From IMG/VR virus record IMGVR_UViG_3300045988_152913, positions 1-12,097 of that record: DNA of 12,097 nt; one strand, written 5' to 3'. The notes under the pieces are model-generated. The model was not told the origin of the DNA. It worked only from the letters and a program-made list of their open reading frames with translations, and did no database searches. Shown piece by piece: positions 339 through 12,097 of this stretch (positions are counted from its first letter, which is position 1; each line of letters starts with the position of its first letter). Made by a program: the position numbers and the translations under genes. This DNA comes from a virus.

Positions 339-1523
339 ATGACACTTGAACAAATAAGCACAATACTTAATACAAGTATTGTACCCGCAATTATGGGAGC
401 GGACTATACAATCAATCCCGACTTATCGAACATCGTTGACTTCGGCACGAAAATATCCGAGATGACCGCCGACCAGTTTAAAACCTACTTCAACGAATTT
501 TGCGCCGCTGTAAGAACGGTTTCCGATACAAGAGAGTACAGCCCCGAAGAATTACCGCTGTATGTTGACAGTGAGGAATACGGCGGTCTTGTCCAGTCTA
601 TAAAATCAGATTTTACTGAAACGAGAAATTCAAATCTCTACTCCCTCGTTGACGGTCAGACTTACAACGATGTAAATAAATACTTTGGTACATCTTTTGA
701 TAACAAAATTTTTGAAAAGGACGTTACATGGGGTATGGCAAAATCTATCCCCAACACTATGTGGAAAAAGGCTTTTTTAAATGCTGAAGGTGTATCACAG
801 CTTGTAGCACTCGTTGAAGTGTGGTATCGAAACACAATCCGCAGAAACAGCTCCGCTATGGAACACAATCTGATAAGCGGTCTTATCACAAAAGGCAAGG
901 ATATAAATCTTGTTACAATGTACAATGATATGCTTGCAACGGGCAAAATTGCACAGTCCGCAAGTACTGGTACTATTGGTGAAAACGCCACTGCGTGGAC
1001 AGAAGGCGAACAGGTCGCAGTGACAAGTGACAACTGCATATACAATAAGTATTTTATGCAGTGGGCGAGTGAAACAATTGCAAATATTATTAAGGTCGCC
1101 CGCTTTGCGAACAAGAAATATAATGACGGCACTGTATCAACATACACAACGGAAAGCGACAGTATTATGATTTATAATACTATGTTTGCGAACAGAATGA
1201 AGGCATTAAACATTGCCGACCCAACAGGCGCAAAAATATATGATACTCCGTTTTGGAATGCACAGACTGATAGTTTGATACCTACAATCAAAAACAGTGC
1301 GCACGTTATCTATACCGATGATGGAGCGGAAACAGGCAACAAAAGTAAGGATTATGTTATTGGTGTTTTATATGACCGCTGGGCTGTCGGCTATACTCTC
1401 ACACCGATTGCTCCCCGTATGGCATACAATGCGGACGGCGATTTTTACACACAGTTTACAGATTTTAACAACCGTTACTGGGTAGACACACGCAACACGG
1501 CAATTGTATTTACGCTTAACTAA
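339..1523 (+). CDS. Major capsid protein (phi29 gp8-like, HK97-fold candidate)
   Basis: It is 394 aa and the first large gene of the structural operon. The segment WKKAFLNAEGVSQLVALVEVWYRNTIRRNSSAMEHNLI resembles phi29 gp8 [38 protein letters not shown]. A strong hairpin follows the gene. Confidence 0.7.
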   Translation: MTLEQISTILNTSIVPAIMGADYTINPDLSNIVDFGTKISEMTADQFKTYFNEFCAAVRTVSDTREYSPEELPLYVDSEEYGGLVQSIKSDFTETRNSNLYSLVDGQTYNDVNKYFGTSFDNKIFEKDVTWGMAKSIPNTMWKKAFLNAEGVSQLVALVEVWYRNTIRRNSSAMEHNLISGLITKGKDINLVTMYNDMLATGKIAQSASTGTIGENATAWTEGEQVAVTSDNCIYNKYFMQWASETIANIIKVARFANKKYNDGTVSTYTTESDSIMIYNTMFANRMKALNIADPTGAKIYDTPFWNAQTDSLIPTIKNSAHVIYTDDGAETGNKSKDYVIGVLYDRWAVGYTLTPIAPRMAYNADGDFYTQFTDFNNRYWVDTRNTAIVFTLN

Positions 1524-1532
1524 CCTCAAAAA

Positions 1533-1565
1533 TATACCCCGTAATATATTACGGGGTATAATATT
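1533..1565 (+). terminator. Perfect 14-bp-stem hairpin after the capsid gene (partial terminator or mRNA stabiliser)
   Basis: tataccccgtaata/tattacggggtata pairs perfectly across 1533-1560 and is followed by the A/T-rich atatt. There is no clean U-tract, so read-through is likely. Confidence 0.4.
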
Positions 1566-1584
1566 ATAAGAAAGGAAGTGTTTT

Positions 1585-2055
1585 ATGAAAGCAACTTTTT
1601 ATAGTTCAACTGCCGAAAAAAATAAACTTGATAAAACAGAATTTTTGACAGGCAAAGCTGTAACAAATATACAGCTAAAAGAAAGCTGTGGAATGCTGAC
1701 CCCTGTTATAATTATGTCGGCGAATGTCACTGGTAAAAATTACGTTCATATACCTTTATTGGCAAGATATTACTTTATAACAAATATAACAAGGCTTGAC
1801 AATGACAGAATAGAAGTATCTTGCAAGGTTGATGTTTTAATGTCATTTAAAGATGATATATTAAAACTTAAAGTGATTGCTACACGGTCAAGTGATAAAT
1901 TTAATTATTATTTGCGTGATAGCGCAATAGCGATACAAGCTAATACGTTTCCGATTGTTCGCAGGCTTTCAAAAGGTCTTTTTCAAAGCAATTTAATCAC
2001 AGAAAATGATTACACATATGCTTTGACAGTAATAAACAAAAAGAAGGTGTTATAA
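1585..2055 (+). CDS. Tail-knob protein, N-terminal-domain-like (phi29 gp9 N-terminus)
   Basis: YYFITNITRLDNDRIEVSCKVDVLMSFKDDI resembles phi29 gp9 [33 protein letters not shown]. The SD is AAAGGAAGTG. The stop TAA overlaps the next ATG (TAATG). Confidence 0.5.
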   Translation: MKATFYSSTAEKNKLDKTEFLTGKAVTNIQLKESCGMLTPVIIMSANVTGKNYVHIPLLARYYFITNITRLDNDRIEVSCKVDVLMSFKDDILKLKVIATRSSDKFNYYLRDSAIAIQANTFPIVRRLSKGLFQSNLITENDYTYALTVINKKKVL

Positions 2056-4100
2056 TGGTAAAATGGAACGATATATTAAACGATGATTATAAAATCAAAA
2101 CTAACAAGGACTACCTTTCCGAATATTTTACTATTGCTGACCGATTTTATAGGAATTTAAGAGCGGCAGGGTTCGTATCCTGCAAAGAAGATTATAGATA
2201 CGGCAGTATATCCGCTTATAATGTTGGTTATTGTTATGCAGTGGACATTGACAAAGATACACTTCCGAGTTGCAAACCGTATGCCGCAGGAATAGATGGT
2301 TTTGGCTTTGAAGCTTTTCCTTTCGGAAAAAGTGACCCGCTTACAGGTTCAGGAAGTTGGAAGTTGTTCGGAAACTTTGTTAATATTTCCAATGCCTTAA
2401 CAAAAGGTGTTAATCATAATTTAGTAATATATTTGCAGTTGGAAAGTATGGCGGATAACGATATGCAGTATAGACAAAAAGCAATTTCTCCGCCCCTAGT
2501 ACCCGCAACAGAAGTAACTCACGATATGGGATTTGGTGGTAGTTACGAAAACACTTTAAACGATGATAAATTTGAAAATTATTATCGTGTTACTGCAATA
2601 ACTTACTATATCAATGATAATGATGGAAATTACAATGAATTAAATCCTAGGGAAATTTATAATGCAGATAGCGGATATTATACAAGCGTTGTTGTCCCTT
2701 TTTATTTGAACGGTTGGAAAGATAGCAGTACGTCCGAGTATGAAACAAAGGTGGCTTGTGTCGGAATATCTTTGGATAATTTGCTAGGAATTTATGCAAG
2801 TATTAAAACAAGCGATTATTATAATTATCGAGAACACGTTAATTACACCAATGGTATTAATGCCGACATATATGGATATGAAAATTTATCCTATTATGAG
2901 AATCCAACAGGGCAGCTATTTGGAAATTTAAATGAGGTTATAGGAAATACAAGATTAAGAAAAACAGTATATTTTACCAAAGAAACATTAACAAAAATAT
3001 TAAATGACATAGGAATACCATACACTTTTAACATAAATGAAGCCCTAAACAATAACACTTCTAATTTTACGAATTATAAACCGAGCGGAAAACCCGAAAA
3101 TCCCATATATCCACCATCGGGCGATGGCGATAATAGCTCAGATGATTTTGAGATTATTACACCTACATACAGCCCGTATGACAGCTACACAACAACATAC
3201 CTTTGCCGCAAAGCGGATATAAATAATTTGTCGAATTATATGTGGAGCGATGATTTTATAAATCAAGTAATCAGACTTTTTGAGAACCCGTCTGAGCTTA
3301 TAACAAACAATATATTTTTTCCGTATTCGCTTACGGAAAATCAAACTTTACCTGAACCCGAACAAATCACAATAGGCAATGTAAATGCTCCGACAAATAC
3401 AACTGGCATACCCTTAACGGCTTTATATAATCGCAGGCGCACAACTGACCCTTACGTTTATACCTCTTACTTTGGGTCATTTTTAGACTATGAGCCTTAC
3501 AGCCACTATCTTTTATATCTGCCTTATATAGGCTTTGTAAAGATAGACGGAAACGATGTTATAAAACACGCTTTACGGGTGGAGTATGTTAGCGAGTTAG
3601 AAACAGGAAATTGCACCGCTTATATTTACAGCGATACCCGATTAGTTGCACAGTATAACGGGGAGCTTGGAACACCTATAGGACTATCAAATACAAATCA
3701 AATACTTAAAAACTTAAAACTAACAGGTGCAACCGTTCAGGTTGCTTCGGGCATTGCGGGTGCAATTGCAAGTAAAGGCGCAGGCGGAACAAGCGCAATA
3801 TCAAGCGGTATTAGTGACTTTATTTCGTCATTTGCGGAACAAACAATTCACGCAGGCGATAAAGTCGGCGGTTTAAATAGTTTGTATTCGCCGCAAGATG
3901 TTTATTTAGTTGTTTTTCATGCAATTCCTGCTGAAGCGACAGGCACAACGGAAATCTTTGGCAAATCAGCAAGCTACGGCGGAACGGTCGCAGATTTTAG
4001 CGGCTTTTTACAGTGTTCTGCTGTTGACGGATACACAAAAGGAACAGACGATGAAAATAATGAAATTTTTGAATTATTGAGAGGTGGCATATATGTTTAA
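2055..4100 (+). CDS. Tail-knob protein, C-terminal part (gp9-like) with a large N-terminal extra module
   Basis: The Gly/Ala/Ser-rich loop ASGIAGAIASKGAGGTSAISSGI and the C-terminal end FLQCSAVDGYTKGTDDENNEIFELLRGGIYV parallel phi29 gp9 (GGGISAGASAAGGSALG ... [32 protein letters not shown]). A Pro-rich linker KPSGKPENPIYPPSGDGD lies mid-protein. Confidence 0.65.
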   Translation: MVKWNDILNDDYKIKTNKDYLSEYFTIADRFYRNLRAAGFVSCKEDYRYGSISAYNVGYCYAVDIDKDTLPSCKPYAAGIDGFGFEAFPFGKSDPLTGSGSWKLFGNFVNISNALTKGVNHNLVIYLQLESMADNDMQYRQKAISPPLVPATEVTHDMGFGGSYENTLNDDKFENYYRVTAITYYINDNDGNYNELNPREIYNADSGYYTSVVVPFYLNGWKDSSTSEYETKVACVGISLDNLLGIYASIKTSDYYNYREHVNYTNGINADIYGYENLSYYENPTGQLFGNLNEVIGNTRLRKTVYFTKETLTKILNDIGIPYTFNINEALNNNTSNFTNYKPSGKPENPIYPPSGDGDNSSDDFEIITPTYSPYDSYTTTYLCRKADINNLSNYMWSDDFINQVIRLFENPSELITNNIFFPYSLTENQTLPEPEQITIGNVNAPTNTTGIPLTALYNRRRTTDPYVYTSYFGSFLDYEPYSHYLLYLPYIGFVKIDGNDVIKHALRVEYVSELETGNCTAYIYSDTRLVAQYNGELGTPIGLSNTNQILKNLKLTGATVQVASGIAGAIASKGAGGTSAISSGISDFISSFAEQTIHAGDKVGGLNSLYSPQDVYLVVFHAIPAEATGTTEIFGKSASYGGTVADFSGFLQCSAVDGYTKGTDDENNEIFELLRGGIYV

Positions 4101-5067
4101 TAATAGCATTTTTGGCGGAACGTATGCAATAGATGATAATATAGATATATCAGTTATGCGTACAAGGCAGTATTTTGACTATTTAATAAAATATTGTTTT
4201 AATCGTTTTAAGTGGGATTTACCCGAAAAAAGCAGAATGCCGTATTTTTTGCCTGAATACCTTTTATCAATATTCGGACACTATGCAATATTTTATTCCA
4301 AAGATATTCCCAATGAAATAGTTTTTGTAACTGGTGGTTTTACGGGTAAAATAAATAGTTGGGGAATGTATACGGGCTATATAGGAATGACTCCGAACGG
4401 TGAAACCTACGAAGGCACAATAGGCGAAGATTGTGTTGTTATCGGTAATAACTCACTTTACAGACCTGATAAACAGATAGTTTGCAGATTTGCACATTTG
4501 TTAAACGAAATAGATAAGTCTTTAGACTTAAATATTTATAATACTCGATTAACAAAGGGTTTTATTGCCGACAATGATAAAGATAAAATGGCAATTGAAA
4601 CAGCATATAAAGCAGTCGGTGACGGAAAGCCGTTTGTCGCTGTCGCTCCTACGCATAGACCTATGACGGACGTACTAGACACTACGCAAGACGGGCTTTA
4701 TACTCCTTTTGATTTTACTACAGTAAAAGATGCTGATAAACTGCAATACTTATCCCGCCTTTATGATGACATAATCGGCAGATTTTTAGCGATGTACGGC
4801 ATTGACACAGGCAACGTTAATAAGGGTTCGCAGATTTTGGAAAATGAAATTTCCCGACTTGCAGAAGCTAGTGCTGTGCCGATAGAGGACGCATACCTCG
4901 CAAGAAAATACGGAATAGAGCAGTATAAAAAAGTTTTTAACCGTGACGATATTAAAATAACACGCTCTCCGCTTTATGGCTGTGATACGGCAATTAATGA
5001 AATCACTGAGGAAAGCAACGAGGGCGGAGAAATCAAAACCGAGGAAGGAGAAAATGAAAATGGCTAA
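4093..5067 (+). CDS. Portal / upper collar connector protein (phi29 gp10-like)
   Basis: YFDYLIKYCFNRFKWDLPE...FLPEYLLSIFGHYAIFY parallels gp10 [23 protein letters not shown]...FLEKSIHQFGYVGFY. VVIGNNSLYRP...FAHLLNEIDKSL parallels VVIYNNDMAFP...FAAELAELKEII. ATG 4093 follows the SD GAGAGGTGG; the ORF track opens at GTG 4084. Confidence 0.85.
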   Translation: MFNNSIFGGTYAIDDNIDISVMRTRQYFDYLIKYCFNRFKWDLPEKSRMPYFLPEYLLSIFGHYAIFYSKDIPNEIVFVTGGFTGKINSWGMYTGYIGMTPNGETYEGTIGEDCVVIGNNSLYRPDKQIVCRFAHLLNEIDKSLDLNIYNTRLTKGFIADNDKDKMAIETAYKAVGDGKPFVAVAPTHRPMTDVLDTTQDGLYTPFDFTTVKDADKLQYLSRLYDDIIGRFLAMYGIDTGNVNKGSQILENEISRLAEASAVPIEDAYLARKYGIEQYKKVFNRDDIKITRSPLYGCDTAINEITEESNEGGEIKTEEGENENG

Positions 5068-5932
5068 CTTGCTTAACTATACAGGCGAAAAAAGCCCCAT
5101 CACTATAGGAGATATGCAGATTTCAGACTCCCTCGGAACAAAACTGCTTGCCACTAGTTTAACTTTCGCAGACGCTTCCGTTTTTGCCAGTGGTAATGAT
5201 TTGTGTATGTTTTTTGGTGATTATACTAAGTCCACCTATGTATATAATCAGGGAAGTATATCACCAAGCAGTGATTTTATAACAACATTAAATAGATATT
5301 GGGATATAAGAAAAGTGGAATATGAAAAAATTAAAAATGCTATTATGGCAGAATATAACCCCATTAATAATTACAGTATGGAAGAAAGACACACAGGAAC
5401 GGACACAACCGAAAGCAAGAACAGCGGAACAGACACAACAACAGACACGCACACAGGAACGGACACACTTGCAAAAACTGGCAATGTTGAAAACGCAAAA
5501 GGCACAACACAGACAAACACGGCAGGCATAACAGCGACAACAACAAATGCGGCAGCGGAAATTACTAGCGTTAATCAAGTATCTGCATATGATAGCAATG
5601 ATTTTACAAATCACGATAAAAACACAACATCGACCCCTGAAACAACGCAGACGGTTGCAAATAGCGGAGCGGATACAATCGCTTACAGCGGTAAAGATAC
5701 AATAACAAACAATTTAACCGATACAACAACATATAACACAACTCAAGTAAGCAGTGTAAAATACGGACACAACACAGACAATACTACTACATACGATACA
5801 CTGTTAACCCGTGTAGGTAACATCGGTGTTACCACTTCGCAACAAATGATAGAAAGCGAATATATTTTGAGATTAAAACATTCGCTTATCGAATTATTCT
5901 TAACCGAATTTATAAGAAATTATTGTTTTTAA
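5054..5932 (+). CDS. Lower collar (gp11-like) protein candidate with a Thr-rich repeat core
   Basis: It lies immediately after the portal, as in phi29. A Thr/Asn-rich repeated middle (HTGTDTT twice) is followed by a conserved-looking C-terminus RVGNIGVTTSQQMIESE. The likely start is ATG 5054 or 5060 after GAGGAAGGAG; the 4976 start in the track lies inside the portal gene. Confidence 0.55.
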   Translation: MKMANLLNYTGEKSPITIGDMQISDSLGTKLLATSLTFADASVFASGNDLCMFFGDYTKSTYVYNQGSISPSSDFITTLNRYWDIRKVEYEKIKNAIMAEYNPINNYSMEERHTGTDTTESKNSGTDTTTDTHTGTDTLAKTGNVENAKGTTQTNTAGITATTTNAAAEITSVNQVSAYDSNDFTNHDKNTTSTPETTQTVANSGADTIAYSGKDTITNNLTDTTTYNTTQVSSVKYGHNTDNTTTYDTLLTRVGNIGVTTSQQMIESEYILRLKHSLIELFLTEFIRNYCF

Positions 5933-5947
5933 GAAAGGAAAATTATT

Positions 5948-6694
5948 ATGTTTAAAAATCATGTTATAGGTGCAAGAGATGAATTTATATCAGCCGACTA
6001 TAAAACGAGAAATCCCGATTACCCTACGCACAACGGAATTGACCTTGTAAGCTCCTCGGGTAAAGATTTATCAATCATTGCCATAGAGGGAGGAACGGTT
6101 GTAACAGCAGTTGACGGAATTGCGGGTCACGATGAATACAACACTTGCGGTAATTTTGTAAAAATCCGTCACGCTGACGGCAAGTTTACTAGGTATCTGC
6201 ATATGCTTAAGGATAGTGTTTGCGTAAAGGTCGGCGAAAAGGTCAAAAAGGGCGCAAAGCTAGGAATGATGGGAAACACTGGGTACAGCTTTGGAAAGCA
6301 CTTGCATTTTGATGTGTCAGACGGAACAGCTTTCGAAGACCCGTTGCCTTATCTTAAGGGCGATAAAAACTTCAATGTTCCACGTGGAACAGATTTTAAA
6401 AAGGGCGAAAAAGTAATGCTTAACAACGGCGCAAAATTTTCAGATGGTAGTACTCCTTTTGATTATGTATATACTACTGTGTATACTATATTAAATATAA
6501 GTAATGACAAAACAGAAGTTTTAATCGGAATTGACAATGCCCCGACAGGCTGGGTATACGCAAAAGACCTCACAAAAATAAATGATACTCCAGACGTTAA
6601 AGTCGGCGATACAATCAAAATCAACGGGAATATATGGGGTGTTGTAATCGGAATTAATGCAAAGGGCGATATAATAAAAGGCGAAAAGTTATGA
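5948..6694 (+). CDS. M23 (LytM-type) metallopeptidase peptidoglycan hydrolase with an SH3-like C-terminal domain
   Basis: The HxxxD motif (HNGIDL) and HxH motif (GKHLHFDV) are in the canonical order. The C-terminal ~100 aa have an SH3b-like pattern (GEKVMLNNGAKF...GWVYAKDL...VGDTIKING). Confidence 0.85.
   Translation: MFKNHVIGARDEFISADYKTRNPDYPTHNGIDLVSSSGKDLSIIAIEGGTVVTAVDGIAGHDEYNTCGNFVKIRHADGKFTRYLHMLKDSVCVKVGEKVKKGAKLGMMGNTGYSFGKHLHFDVSDGTAFEDPLPYLKGDKNFNVPRGTDFKKGEKVMLNNGAKFSDGSTPFDYVYTTVYTILNISNDKTEVLIGIDNAPTGWVYAKDLTKINDTPDVKVGDTIKINGNIWGVVIGINAKGDIIKGEKL
6376..6391. promoter_or_regulatory. Palindrome copy 1: TGTTCCA-CG-TGGAACA (perfect 16-mer), inside the M23 gene
   Basis: The 16-mer tgttccacgtggaaca is its own reverse complement. 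The same arms recur at 7853-7868 and 11016-11033. Confidence 0.4.
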
Positions 6695-7851
6695 CAGATA
6701 AAGAATACAAAGAAGCGATAAAGCTATACAAGTCTTTGCACTGCCCGTCAGACACTTTAAACATAATTGGTGATATTTTGCCGTATGAAAAAGCGTGGAA
6801 TATGATTCTTTCCCCCCGCTCAAGGGGAAAGACCACTAATCTTATTTTATGGGGTATGTGTTTAAATGCGACTTGCGGTACACAAATACAATATATCCGT
6901 CAAAGAGATAGTCAGTTAGTACCTAAACTATGTGGTAAATTATGCGATGTTATAAATATGCCAAAGTACAAATACATTGAAAAAATAACAAATGGCAGAT
7001 ATAATAATGTATGGTATTACGGAAGAAAATGGTATTATCGCCTAATTGATGAAAACGGAGAAGTTATAGAAAAATCCGAAACACCTTTTATGTCTTGCAT
7101 AGCTGTAGACCAAAACCAAAACTTAAAATCGGTGTACAATGCGCCTAACGGAGATTTTATAATCTTTGACGAGTTTTTAACAAAAAATGGATATTTGCCT
7201 GACGAATTTGTACTTTTAAATGACTTACTGAGTACAATAATCCGACAACGTGATACAGCTAGTATATATCTTGTAGGTAACTTAATAGACAAATATAGTA
7301 TATATTTTGACGAATTATACCTAACAGATATTATACAGGAAATAACATGGGGCGAGCACAGAAACGTAAATTGCGGCGGTACTGAGCTACACCTATTTAC
7401 ATTGCCACTTGATATGACAGCAAAGCGGCAGAAAGTAAATAAAAAATATTTTGGTTGGAATAACCAAATGTTAACAAGTATAACGGGCAATAAAGGCTTG
7501 TGGCAAATGAAGCAATATCCGAAACCGCCTAAAGGAGATTTTGAAGTTATTGACAAGGCATATATCTATAAAAACGGAAAGTATTGCGCAAGAGAGATTC
7601 GCAAAGACGAAACGAATCACTTATATATTATGATATATAGTGATACTTACGGATACAATCCTGACAGGCATATATTATATACGTTAAATAGCAAGGTGGG
7701 ATATAATAAAAAAATCCGCTTTGGGTTTGGCTTTACCTATACAGACGATTGCGTAAAGCGTTTAATTTTAGCCAAAAGGATATTTTTTGCAGATAATTCT
7801 TGCGGCGCTTTCCTTGACAGCTATATAAAAGATATTTCAACCTATAAATAA
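6691..7851 (+). CDS. DNA packaging (encapsidation) ATPase, phi29 gp16-like
   Basis: Walker A SPRSRGKTT (phi29 GARGIGKSY). QIQYIRQRDSQL parallels QFIYVRRYKPEL. Walker B plus downstream DFIIFDEFLTKNGYLPDEFVLLNDLLSTIIRQRD parallels IVFDEFIREKDNSNYIPNEVSALLNLMDTVFRNRE. The start overlaps the upstream stop (ATGA). Confidence 0.9.
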   Translation: MTDKEYKEAIKLYKSLHCPSDTLNIIGDILPYEKAWNMILSPRSRGKTTNLILWGMCLNATCGTQIQYIRQRDSQLVPKLCGKLCDVINMPKYKYIEKITNGRYNNVWYYGRKWYYRLIDENGEVIEKSETPFMSCIAVDQNQNLKSVYNAPNGDFIIFDEFLTKNGYLPDEFVLLNDLLSTIIRQRDTASIYLVGNLIDKYSIYFDELYLTDIIQEITWGEHRNVNCGGTELHLFTLPLDMTAKRQKVNKKYFGWNNQMLTSITGNKGLWQMKQYPKPPKGDFEVIDKAYIYKNGKYCAREIRKDETNHLYIMIYSDTYGYNPDRHILYTLNSKVGYNKKIRFGFGFTYTDDCVKRLILAKRIFFADNSCGAFLDSYIKDISTYK

Positions 7852-7852
7852 A

Positions 7853-7868
7853 TGTTCCACGAGGAACA
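7853..7868. promoter_or_regulatory. Palindrome copy 2: TGTTCCA-CG-AGGAACA (one arm mismatch)
   Basis: It starts two bases after the ATPase stop codon and lies just upstream of the bidirectional terminator. Confidence 0.4.
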
Positions 7869-7870
7869 AA

Positions 7871-7905
7871 AGAAGAGCGGTCATTTGCCGCTCTTTTCGT
7901 TTATC
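7871..7905. terminator. Bidirectional rho-independent terminator between the convergent operons
   Basis: The stem AAGAGCGG/CCGCTCTT (7873-7880 / 7888-7895) has a 7-nt loop. It is followed by TTCGTTTATCTTT on the plus strand and by CTTTTGTT on the minus strand. Confidence 0.7.
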
Positions 7906-9961: not shown

Positions 9962-10626
9962 TAAAAAGGCAATCCTTTCTTTCCTTGCTTATAATCGGCA
10001 AGTTGTTTCAAAGCGTCTTCACGCTGTGCTTGTTGACGTTTTTCAAATTCTTCGTCCAGTTCTTCTATGTAATTTTTTTCTTCAAGCTCCGCCTGATTTG
10101 CTACCGTGTTTATCTTTTTGACTATATCGTCAAGCTCGGATAATTCTTCTTTTTTCTTTCCTTTTCTTTTCTCAACAAATTCTTCTAAAATTCCACTGTA
10201 GCGGGGGTCATTTTGAACTCTGTACAAAATATCAAGATTAGAGGTAAGATTATTCCACGCTTTCGCCCCCCTGTGTTCTTCTTCGATTTCGGCTTGCGTG
10301 ACATCTTTCAAGGGCTTATTTTCTCTTGCGCTGATTTTCTTTTTATATTCAAATTTTATATCGCCTTTTGTTTTTGTTTTTTGATTTGCAAGGCTCTTTT
10401 TAAGGGCGGTCACCTTTTGCCTGTTTTCTTTTGTGTTTGCTATCGCAAAAGTGCCTTGCGGAGCGGTTTTAGTAATTTTAAAATCATAGTTGATACCCGC
10501 ACTATCAAGTGCTTTCTTATATGCGGCTACCTCGTTACTGTCAAACCCCATATAACCAGCAACCTCCGCAAGTCGCTGATTTATCTTTTTTATGTACTTT
10601 TGCGCTTCTTTTTGTGCGTTTGTCAT
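9961..10626 (-). CDS. Terminal protein candidate (phi29 gp3 position)
   Basis: It lies directly upstream of the polymerase and is translationally coupled to it (TAATG overlap). It is highly charged and Lys-rich. Faint resemblances to phi29 TP are VQNDPRYS versus MRTDPQYY, EELDEEFEK versus ISFEEFDSE, and the C-terminal end YKQGKKGLPF versus YRRGDFDLSLKGF. Confidence 0.55.
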   Translation of the reverse strand: MTNAQKEAQKYIKKINQRLAEVAGYMGFDSNEVAAYKKALDSAGINYDFKITKTAPQGTFAIANTKENRQKVTALKKSLANQKTKTKGDIKFEYKKKISARENKPLKDVTQAEIEEEHRGAKAWNNLTSNLDILYRVQNDPRYSGILEEFVEKRKGKKKEELSELDDIVKKINTVANQAELEEKNYIEELDEEFEKRQQAQREDALKQLADYKQGKKGLPF

Positions 10627-10643: not shown

Positions 10644-10675
10644 AAAAATTAAGGGACGGCGCAAAACCGTCCCTT
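10644..10675 (-). terminator. Minus-strand intrinsic terminator/attenuator between the SSB and terminal-protein genes
   Basis: The 9-bp GC-rich stem AAGGGACGG/CCGTCCCTT (10651-10659 / 10667-10675) is followed on the minus strand by AAUUUUUAAAAA. There is no U-tract on the plus strand. Confidence 0.6.
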
Positions 10676-10688
10676 GATTGAAACAAAA

Positions 10689-11003
10689 TTACTTGATGTA
10701 AAGGGAAAGGAACGTTCTGCCACTCTTGCTTTCTCTGTGTAGTACCTCAACTTCCAGTGTACCTAACTCGTCTATGAGGTCAACGAGCTTGTTTACTGTG
10801 CTTAACACTGTTGCAGACACCGAGCCGTAAACGCCCTCTGTGGTAAAGAGATATGCGACCTCTTTTTCCTCTCCTGTTTCCGTGTCTATCACGGTATCAG
10901 TTGCAACACCTGTAACGGTAAGGTCGGTAGCCTTTTCAAGCGACATCGAGCTTGAAGAAGCGTTGAAAAGGTCTTTTGCTGTGAGATTTGTTGTTTTTGT
11001 CAT
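10689..11003 (-). CDS. Single-stranded DNA-binding protein, phi29 p5-like
   Basis: AYLFTTEGVYGSVSATVLSTVNKLVDLIDELGTLEVEVLHRESKSGRTFLSLYIK parallels phi29 p5 [59 protein letters not shown]. ATG 11003 follows the SD AGGAG with a 7-nt spacer. The track start at 11033 has no SD and lies inside the palindrome. Confidence 0.8.
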   Translation of the reverse strand: MTKTTNLTAKDLFNASSSSMSLEKATDLTVTGVATDTVIDTETGEEKEVAYLFTTEGVYGSVSATVLSTVNKLVDLIDELGTLEVEVLHRESKSGRTFLSLYIK

Positions 11004-11015
11004 AATAAAACTCCT

Positions 11016-11033
11016 ATGTTCCATGTGGAACAT
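11016..11033. promoter_or_regulatory. Palindrome copy 3: ATGTTCCA-TG-TGGAACAT, abutting the SSB ribosome-binding site
   Basis: The 8-bp arms are perfect. On the minus strand the sequence reads ATGTTCCACATGGAACAT followed directly by AGGAG. Confidence 0.45.
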
Positions 11034-11080
11034 TGCTATTTGTCGGATAGCTCCGTATTTATACCCTGTCGGGTTGGGGT

Positions 11081-11103
11081 GCGGCTGTTAAAAGGACAAC
11101 CGC
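11081..11103 (-). other. Strand-biased RNA hairpin downstream of the 65-aa gene
   Basis: The 8-bp stem GCGGUUGU/ACAGCCGC holds on the minus-strand RNA, where one pair is a G-U wobble. On the plus strand that pair is a C-A mismatch. No U-tract follows. Confidence 0.3.
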
Positions 11104-11111
11104 TCAGAACC

Positions 11112-11598: not shown

Positions 11599-11687
11599 TT
11601 ACCTCTCGTTTCATTGTCTATATATTACACCTTTTATATGTAATCTGTATGATAGTTTTGTGTTAATTATGTGAAATTTGTTTTACC
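11599..11687. repeat. Copy A of a duplicated ~89-bp promoter/leader module
   Basis: It shares with 11902-11990 the blocks ttacctctc(g)tttcattg(t/a)ctatat, a 28-bp core tgatagttttgtgNNaattatgtgaaat (26/28 identical) and a terminal ttacc. Confidence 0.75.
11622..11677 (-). promoter_or_regulatory. Candidate internal early promoter (copy A)
   Basis: The minus strand carries a -10-like TAATAT (11627-11622) preceded by GGTG. There is no good -35, and an upstream TTTCAC box lies in the conserved core. It sits ahead of the 83-aa gene. Confidence 0.35.
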
Positions 11688-11887
11688 TCCTTTTTAAGTC
11701 GGTCAAGCACAACTTGTCCGTTTACCCCTGTCATTTTCTCAAAATACGAGGATTTTAAAAACCTCGCTACCTCGGAGCGCATATTAGGTTCATTGCGGTA
11801 GTCATTAACCGCTTGATTGATTACGGCAATCCATAGTTGTGTATAACCTCCGTTGGTTTTTATCGGACTTTTCTTAAGTGGTCTAAT
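11663..11887 (-). CDS. Hypothetical first early protein (~74 aa) with a non-canonical start (ATT or CTG)
   Basis: An 87-codon open frame on the minus strand has protein-like sequence (...GGYTQLWIAVINQAVNDYRNEPNMRSEVARFLKSSYFEKMTGVNGQVVLDRLKKEVKQISHN). The strong SD AAAGGAG (11903-11897) is followed by CTG 11896, ATT 11893 and ATT 11887. There is no ATG/GTG/TTG until codon 49, and that ATG has no SD. Confidence 0.45.
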   Translation of the reverse strand: MRPLKKSPIKTNGGYTQLWIAVINQAVNDYRNEPNMRSEVARFLKSSYFEKMTGVNGQVVLDRLKKEVKQISHN

Positions 11888-11901
11888 TTTAATCAGCTCC
11901 T

Positions 11902-11990
11902 TTACCTCTCTTTCATTGACTATATTGTACCAAACCCGTATGAAAACTATTTGATAGTTTTGTGAAAATTATGTGAAATATTAACTTACC
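11902..11990. repeat. Copy B of the duplicated ~89-bp promoter/leader module
   Basis: See copy A. Copy B also contains the inverted repeat AAAACTAT-ttg-ATAGTTTT (11943-11961) and two GTGAAA boxes 10 bp apart (11963-11968 and 11973-11978). Confidence 0.75.
11924..11979 (-). promoter_or_regulatory. Candidate telomere-proximal early promoter (copy B)
   Basis: The minus strand carries an extended -10, TGgTACAAT (11932-11924). There is no recognisable -35, and two TTTCAC boxes lie upstream. It sits ahead of the first early ORF. Confidence 0.4.
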
Positions 11991-12046
11991 ACTTTACCAC
12001 TTTATCACTTTATCACTTTACCACTTTAGCACTTTAGCACTTTAGC
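11984..12046. repeat. Tandem 8-bp repeat array (ACTTTAnC, 7 full units plus one degenerate unit) abutting the right ITR
   Basis: Units across 11991-12046: actttacc, actttatc, actttatc, actttacc, actttagc, actttagc, actttagc. A 7-nt unit acttacc precedes them at 11984-11990. The last unit faces an inverted unit (taaagtg, 12051-12057) inside the ITR. Confidence 0.9.
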
Positions 12047-12097
12047 GTGATAAAGTGCGAGTTAGTTTCAACTAACTTTTCCCCCTCTTATTACTTT
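12041..12097. repeat. Right inverted terminal repeat (ITR)
   Basis: The reverse complement of the last 57 bases equals bases 1-57 with two adjacent mismatches. The window starts and ends exactly at the repeat, which implies a full-length linear genome. Confidence 0.9.
12060..12077. repeat. Palindrome inside the right ITR (AGTTAGTT-TC-AACTAACT)
   Basis: The 8-bp arms are identical to the left copy. Only the central dinucleotide differs, and these two bases are the only mismatches in the ITR core. Confidence 0.85.

Follow-up and report, generated by a model that had tools for sequence, protein, structure and literature searches.

Cis-acting partition sites scattered over a phage genome, such as the sopC-like sites of N15 and the parS of P1, provide plasmid-like inheritance, and these prophages encode their own ParA and ParB (SopA and SopB) together with their own site sequences. 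On bacterial chromosomes, ParB loads onto parS and spreads along the DNA; the Noc site has the consensus ATTTCCCGGGAAAT. The general chromosomal parS consensus is TGTTNCACGTGAAACA; for Pseudomonas putida and P. aeruginosa, the chromosomal site given is TGTTCCACGTGGAACA itself (PMC7022226, Table 1). Phi29 offers the closest described case among phages: according to the statements made on it in PMC2731898 and PMC9437464, its genome has five parS sites, through which host Spo0J segregates the phage genome into the prespore, and for this entrapment of phi29 in the spore by Spo0J both cite Meijer et al. 2005. A scan of the phi29 record located TGTTTCACGTGGAACA four times, at 10445, 15903, 17243 and 18760; the right half of this sequence is the TGGAACA arm of the motif described below. 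Host-type parS on a phi29-like phage is therefore already known. Here it is found in an uncultured family, and what is added is that the trait is widespread in this family from gut-type metagenomes and that its placement past the stop codon of the packaging ATPase gene is conserved.

The stretch of DNA analyzed here, referred to as the window, is 12,097 bp in length and constitutes a complete linear phage genome of phi29-like type with inverted terminal repeats at both ends (1-57 and 12041-12097; ~57 nt, with two mismatches at positions 29-30). The repeats begin with AAAGTAATAAG, where phi29 begins with AAAGTAAG. The encoded proteins include a phi29-type major capsid protein, connector, gp16-type ATPase and SSB, along with a protein-primed family B polymerase. 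Homologues of this polymerase (n = 2,360) reside on contigs that are nearly all 11-13 kb, and several of the source records are labeled human gut metagenome. The window represents an uncultured phi29-like podovirus of gut-type metagenomes that uses protein-primed replication; a megablast search of GenBank phages with the whole window found no match.

Early and late genes are arranged in two operons that run toward each other. The rightward, late operon (genes 339-7851, + strand), with a consensus promoter at 89-117, includes an M23 peptidase gene (5948-6694, + strand; PF01551, E = 3e-21) and ends with the gp16-type DNA packaging ATPase gene (6691-7851, + strand), which was assigned by phrog_2150 (E = 6e-18) and by PF05894 with a score of 24.7 bits, slightly below the 25-bit cutoff of the family. 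The leftward, early operon on the minus strand starts from the right end and holds the genes for the polymerase, a putative terminal protein and SSB as well as three small ORFs. Both operons converge on a bidirectional intrinsic terminator (7871-7897) composed of stem-loops with T runs on both strands, which is kept in relatives. The phi29-type SSB gene (10689-11003, minus strand; PF17427, E = 2e-10) has the SD AGGAG at 11015-11011 and its true start ATG at 11003-11001, yielding a protein of 104 aa, the same length as in all homologues. Strong purine-rich SDs, which are usual in phages of Firmicutes, precede nearly every gene of the window.

A search of the whole window for TGTTCCANNTGGAACA with up to two mismatches returned exactly three sites. 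The first, parS-1 (6376-6391), is the perfect 16-bp palindrome TGTTCCACGTGGAACA; it occupies codons 143-148 (N-V-P-R-G-T) of the M23 gene and falls in the linker that joins the M23 domain to the C-terminal domain. The second, parS-2 (TGTTCCACGAGGAACA; 7853-7868), has one mismatch at the innermost arm base, starts one base past the ATPase TAA (7849-7851) and ends two bases before the terminator. The third, parS-3, has a core without mismatches (TGTTCCATGTGGAACA; 11017-11032), which extends to the 18-mer ATGTTCCATGTGGAACAT with 8-bp arms at 11016-11033. On the minus strand (11033-11016) parS-3 reads ATGTTCCACATGGAACAT and is directly followed by AGGAG, 7 nt and the SSB ATG. Its core contains a single central transition from CACGTG, and parS-2 and parS-3 are each one base off parS-1. 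The original prediction, made from the sequence of the window, had placed three copies of TGTTCCA-N2-TGGAACA at these positions, with one mismatch in the second and 8-bp arms in the third, and all of this was found again. The three contexts it had given (the M23 gene, the interval between ATPase stop and terminator, and the SSB SD) are also correct; the strand read at the third site was not, as the SSB gene lies on the minus strand.

That three such sites are unlikely to occur by chance was likewise confirmed: 200 dinucleotide shuffles of the window contained a mean of 0.05 matches, and none of the 200 reached three. A chance origin of the palindromes is rejected. Outside the three palindromes there are only two occurrences of the half-site TGGAACA, and this rarity identifies the full dyad, not the heptamer, as the recurring unit.

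Judged by their sequence, the three palindromes represent parS, the chromosomal centromere of bacteria, which is bound by ParB/Spo0J. Each is a 16-bp inverted repeat within 1-2 mismatches of TGTTNCACGTGAAACA or of known variants, TGTTCCACGTGGAACA being one mismatch from this B. subtilis consensus. All three sites carry parS-type bases (TGTT...CAYRTG/CACGAG...AACA; the parS type is marked by G at position 2 and a CACGTG core) and not those of the Noc type. The original prediction had not recognized the motif as a known operator, where in fact the sequence of this chromosomal centromere is published; in agreement with that prediction, the motif is not a LexA, cre or PadR box. Compared with the centromeres of B. 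subtilis (TGTTNCACGTGAAACA) and Pseudomonas (TGTTCCACGTGGAACA), the 16-mers of the window are identical or within one mismatch, and multiple copies occur in both settings. Chromosomal ParABS centromeres, however, surround the chromosomal origin, whereas the sites of the window lie on a small lytic-type phage genome without parAB. Two of the three differ at one base, in the CACGTG core or in the arm, and their affinity for ParB is a predicted one. The exact 16-mer TGTTCCACGTGGAACA is also present in at least 120 other IMG/VR viral contigs of widely varying length, most of which have one copy among the matches listed (L134-L213 and further); these contigs could be phage-plasmids with a ParB of their own or additional instances of host-site mimicry.

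When related phage genomes were searched for the motif, as had been proposed with the original prediction, its position proved to be conserved: relatives with 79-99% SSB identity have a site at all three corresponding positions, between variable flanks. In the M23 gene, parS-1 is kept in 13 distinct relatives at synonymous positions. Across the 13 distinct genes, 58 four-fold codons specify an invariant amino acid; the third base is invariant in six of these, three of which are inside parS-1, and mean pairwise diversity at M23 four-fold sites is 0.07 in parS-1 vs 0.42 in the whole gene. This low synonymous diversity relative to the gene indicates selection on the DNA and not on the protein. 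Together with the recurrence of the motif at different positions across lineages, described below, it shows that selection acts on the DNA itself, independently of the local coding or regulatory context. Mismatches are few and affect the innermost or outermost arm base or consist of single transitions of the central CG, the core variants being ACGT (46), ATGT (15) and ACAT (12).

Some close relatives have lost sites. parS-2 is deleted in L004 and L010 and has a 1-nt spacer deletion in L001 and L024; a fourth site is present in L026. L010, whose SSB is 90% identical, is without all three good sites: parS-2 is deleted, the core of parS-1 is changed, and parS-3 is replaced by GTGTCCCAAGAGGGGCAC, which is no longer parS but keeps the dyad. 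The losses in L010 could reflect a host shift or relaxed selection, and the loss of sites in some close relatives indicates that the parS trait is dispensable.

The leader upstream of parS-3 (11034-11111) is itself conserved. It contains a stem-loop on the minus strand, GCGGTTGT-CCTTTTA-ACAGCCGC (11081-11103), in which four pairs show compensatory changes across relatives, followed by the highly conserved stretch CCCGACAGGGTATAAATACGGAGCTATCCGACAAATAG. This stem-loop has no Rfam match. At a permissive threshold, Rfam gave only sub-threshold terminator-like matches, with no pRNA or other family at or near the sites.

The strongest argument against a gene-specific role is provided by more distant relatives. 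Across the wider family, 125 related loci (1.25 Mb) contain 48 exact and 41 one-mismatch matches to TGTTYCACGTGRAACA, for which 0.001 and 0.05 are expected in 1.25 Mb, respectively; ten shuffles gave none. Positions 5 and 12 switch together, with C/G in 53 sites, T/A in 27 and mixed pairs in few, and these two combinations correspond to the two known half-site variants of chromosomal parS (PMC7022226). The sites recur at changing positions. In L028 (124-139 and 11853-11868), L030 and L031 (52-53% polymerase identity), parS is found at the inner edge of both inverted terminal repeats, exactly at the repeat boundary and just upstream of the terminal promoters. L017 shows this arrangement as well, here with canonical TGTTTCACGTGAAACA. 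A further clade, consisting of L013, L060, L069, L072 and L073 (37-39% polymerase identity) and called the L060 clade below, carries 4-6 canonical copies. Many lineages of the phage family examined have no parS. Among cultured relatives, sites are present in three Firmicutes phages (phi29, Clostridium phage HM2 and Amedibacillus phage AD70P3); no parS was found in Bacillus phage WhyPhy or in four small relatives with Gram-negative hosts (Salmonella, Pectobacterium, Acinetobacter and Vibrio).

One placement is common to the window and phi29. In phi29, the end of gene 16 (ATPase) at 17242 is followed by parS at 17243-17258 and by terminator TD1 at 17262-17301; the corresponding positions in the window are 7851 for the end of the ATPase gene, 7853-7868 for parS-2 and 7871-7897 for the terminator. 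The ATPase homologue of the L060 clade (phrog_2150) is encoded by a gene with parS 0 nt after its stop. The two L060 sites are at 5169-5184 and 5206-5221, and the second forms the stem of a bidirectional terminator. The window clade, the L060 clade and phi29 thus all have a parS that follows the ATPase stop at 0-2 nt and precedes the terminator. The odds of one site falling directly past the ATPase stop are roughly 3 in 12,000, and the occurrence of so rare a placement in three lineages with different gene orders points to common descent or to a functional reason.

The resemblance to phi29 extends further. Both phages use protein-primed replication, have no par genes of their own and carry several dispersed 16-mers of chromosomal parS type, one of which lies between the ATPase stop and a bidirectional terminator while others are inside late genes. 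The window, like phi29, therefore combines multiple host-type parS sites with a lytic, protein-primed genome. Differences are seen in genome size (12.1 kb in the window vs 19.3 kb in phi29) and in gene order, and the early and late operons of the window converge from the two genome ends, unlike those of phi29. The sites of the window are of the fully symmetric C/G variant and number three, compared with five in phi29; in a further departure from phi29, no p4 or p6 homologues were detected in the window. A search of the window for Spo0A boxes yielded one TGTCGAA (at 3229, where there is no promoter) vs 1.5 expected, and eight TGNCGAA vs 5.7 expected, none of them at promoters. Spo0A boxes suppressing the lytic cycle were thus not found at the early or late promoters of the window, which counts against a full phi29-like strategy.

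Since neither Pfam nor PHROGs revealed a ParA, ParB or HTH family in any ORF of the window, and since the motif corresponds to the centromere of the host, binding by host ParB is the most economical interpretation. On the evidence of the DNA sequence, the palindromes are probably parS sites recognized by host ParB, which would couple the phage DNA to host segregation. As with the plasmid prophages N15 and P1, cis-acting partition sites are dispersed over the genome; in contrast to N15 and P1, the window phage would rely on a protein of its host and carries the sequence of the host site. Among possible mechanisms, segregation or spore entrapment of the phage DNA through binding of host ParB is the most likely. 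In this model, host ParB dimers would bind the three sites after injection, load and spread over the 12-kb phage DNA, and thereby couple the phage genome to the host origin-segregation machinery (ParA/Soj, SMC), so that it would be handled like an origin region. With a delayed lytic programme, the phage genome would then be partitioned along with the host chromosome to daughter cells or, in a sporulating host, to the forespore, as described for phi29 and Spo0J. It is in this segregation or spore entrapment that we infer the benefit to the phage to lie. In addition, the position of parS-3 against the SSB ribosome-binding site may have a local effect on expression of the replication genes, and that of parS-2 at the convergent terminator may likewise act locally. 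As to the host, the metagenome-assembled genome bins that hold relatives, found in a scan with the polymerase profile, are mostly Clostridia; this assignment is noisy, with Treponema, Akkermansia and Bacteroidales bins appearing as well. No informative host emerged from a tblastn of the M23 protein against phages.

Host ParB might also bind these sites for a selected function that is regulatory and not segregational, serving to couple phage development to the host cell cycle; we consider this unlikely. ParB located at parS-3, or spread from it, would lower the transcription or translation of the genes for SSB, terminal protein and polymerase; at parS-2 it would insulate the convergent operons, and from the terminal-repeat sites it could modulate terminal promoters or replication origins. 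ParB has been reported on half-parS sites in P. aeruginosa (PMC7022226). Several placements are consistent with such a role: parS-3 adjoins the SSB SD in every close relative, the L060 clade has another parS just upstream of the SD of a gene, and in L028, L031, L017, L035 and L039 a site separates the genome end from the first promoter. In addition, the window has no Spo0A boxes to supply the lytic-cycle suppression that phi29 needs. However, parS-1 lies deep in a coding region with no evidence of a promoter, and binding of Spo0J in B. subtilis is generally reported to have little effect on the expression of neighboring genes.

Another explanation holds that the palindromes act as RNA or single-stranded DNA hairpins with a 6-bp stem and a 4-nt loop, and that the likeness to parS is incidental. 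They would then be mRNA stabilizers, processing sites, auxiliary terminators or a translational operator for SSB, and the original prediction had indeed raised both an RNA hairpin or RNase III-type site and SSB autoregulation in the manner of T4 gp32. Each copy folds to -7 to -10 kcal/mol, the only arm mismatches are at the innermost base, which would be part of the loop, and parS-2 and parS-3 were flagged as weak terminator-like hairpins. Moreover, parS forms the terminator stem in the L060 clade, site 2 of L001 and L024 is still a hairpin despite the 1-nt deletion, and in L010 the dyad persists at site 3 after the loss of parS. The sequence of the arms argues otherwise. Over 91 distinct instances the arms are essentially invariant, toggling only between two known half-sites, where a structural element would be expected to covary freely, as the neighboring leader stem-loop does; for this reason a hairpin or RNase III-type site is not accepted as the primary role. 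The sites are also on transcripts of opposite strands, parS-2 lies beyond the terminator for the early transcript, and the exact 16-mer is a protein-binding site known across bacteria (PMC7022226). An SSB translational operator as the primary role fares no better. Other lineages carry the 16-mer at unrelated places, namely in terminal repeats and past the ATPase stop, and only the close clade has the site in its SSB leader. Neither the covarying structure nor the fixed position relative to a gene that a T4 gp32-like element would display was seen, L010 alone showing a dyad-preserving change, and the shift of site positions between lineages means that a role specific to the SSB gene is not expected. 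We therefore regard the hairpin explanation as quite improbable. The dyad kept at site 3 of L010 hints at a structural role there, as an RNA or DNA hairpin, and the site may thus have a secondary function as an RNA hairpin in the SSB leader.

The original prediction of a site for a dimeric DNA-binding protein of host or phage was plausibly right as to the type of site, but an operator for a phage-encoded dimeric regulator is highly improbable: although palindromic 16-mers are typical operators and three small early ORFs to which no function is assigned (orf70, orf83 and orf65) lie upstream of parS-3, the products of these ORFs match no HTH or DNA-binding family in Pfam or PHROGs and have no detected homologue in the remaining lineages with the motif (most close relatives in which the three sites are intact do not even have orf83), only one of the three sites is at a promoter, and the motif is identical to the universal host parS.

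If host ParB does bind the sites, inheritance by dividing or sporulating hosts would be available to a large phage family without lysogeny genes. This would bear on the persistence of 'virulent' phages in gut communities, on carrier states and on spore-borne transmission between animals. The module of ATPase stop, parS and terminator, taken together with the parS sites at the inner edges of terminal repeats, suggests that ParB loading is built into the genome architecture, and these conserved placements, past the ATPase stop and at terminal-repeat boundaries, represent a testable clue to a use of ParB beyond passive hitch-hiking. We propose only tentatively that the hijacking of host ParB is both ancient and common among small protein-primed podoviruses of gut and rumen Firmicutes, and not peculiar to phi29; nominally lytic gut phages could then persist as segregating linear episomes or inside spores, and ParB may also gate their replication genes, as parS-3 on the SSB ribosome-binding site would allow here.

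Several other features of the genome were observed. The first gene of the rightward operon (140-322, + strand) encodes a 60-aa protein with a hydrophobic N-terminal segment and has homologues in distant relatives, including Amedibacillus phage AD70P3; its product is possibly a holin, and besides the M23 peptidase gene and this candidate no lysis genes are evident in the window. On the minus strand, a 70-codon ORF (11687-11896) matches phrog_7024 (E = 2e-12) and has the SD AAAGGAG with no ATG, GTG or TTG start behind it, so that its start may be CTG or ATT. The SSB gene is separated from that of the putative terminal protein by a strong terminator-like hairpin on the minus strand (10651-10675), which could determine how much SSB is made relative to the replication proteins.

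Some eight copies of an 8-nt unit (GNTAAAGT) are arranged in tandem at ~11985-12046 on the minus strand, immediately inward of the right terminal repeat; the left genome end shows degenerate traces only. These units could be sites for an origin-binding or genome-organizing protein. An early promoter module, ATTTCACATAATTNNCACAAAACTATCA followed by an extended -10, is duplicated on the minus strand (11918-11979 and 11618-11677) and contains repeated TTTCACA-like elements. L002, L005, L007, L008 and L026 have an optional extra gene cassette under the control of this module; the insertion separates the polymerase gene from the terminator, and parS still adjoins the terminator in the relatives that have it.
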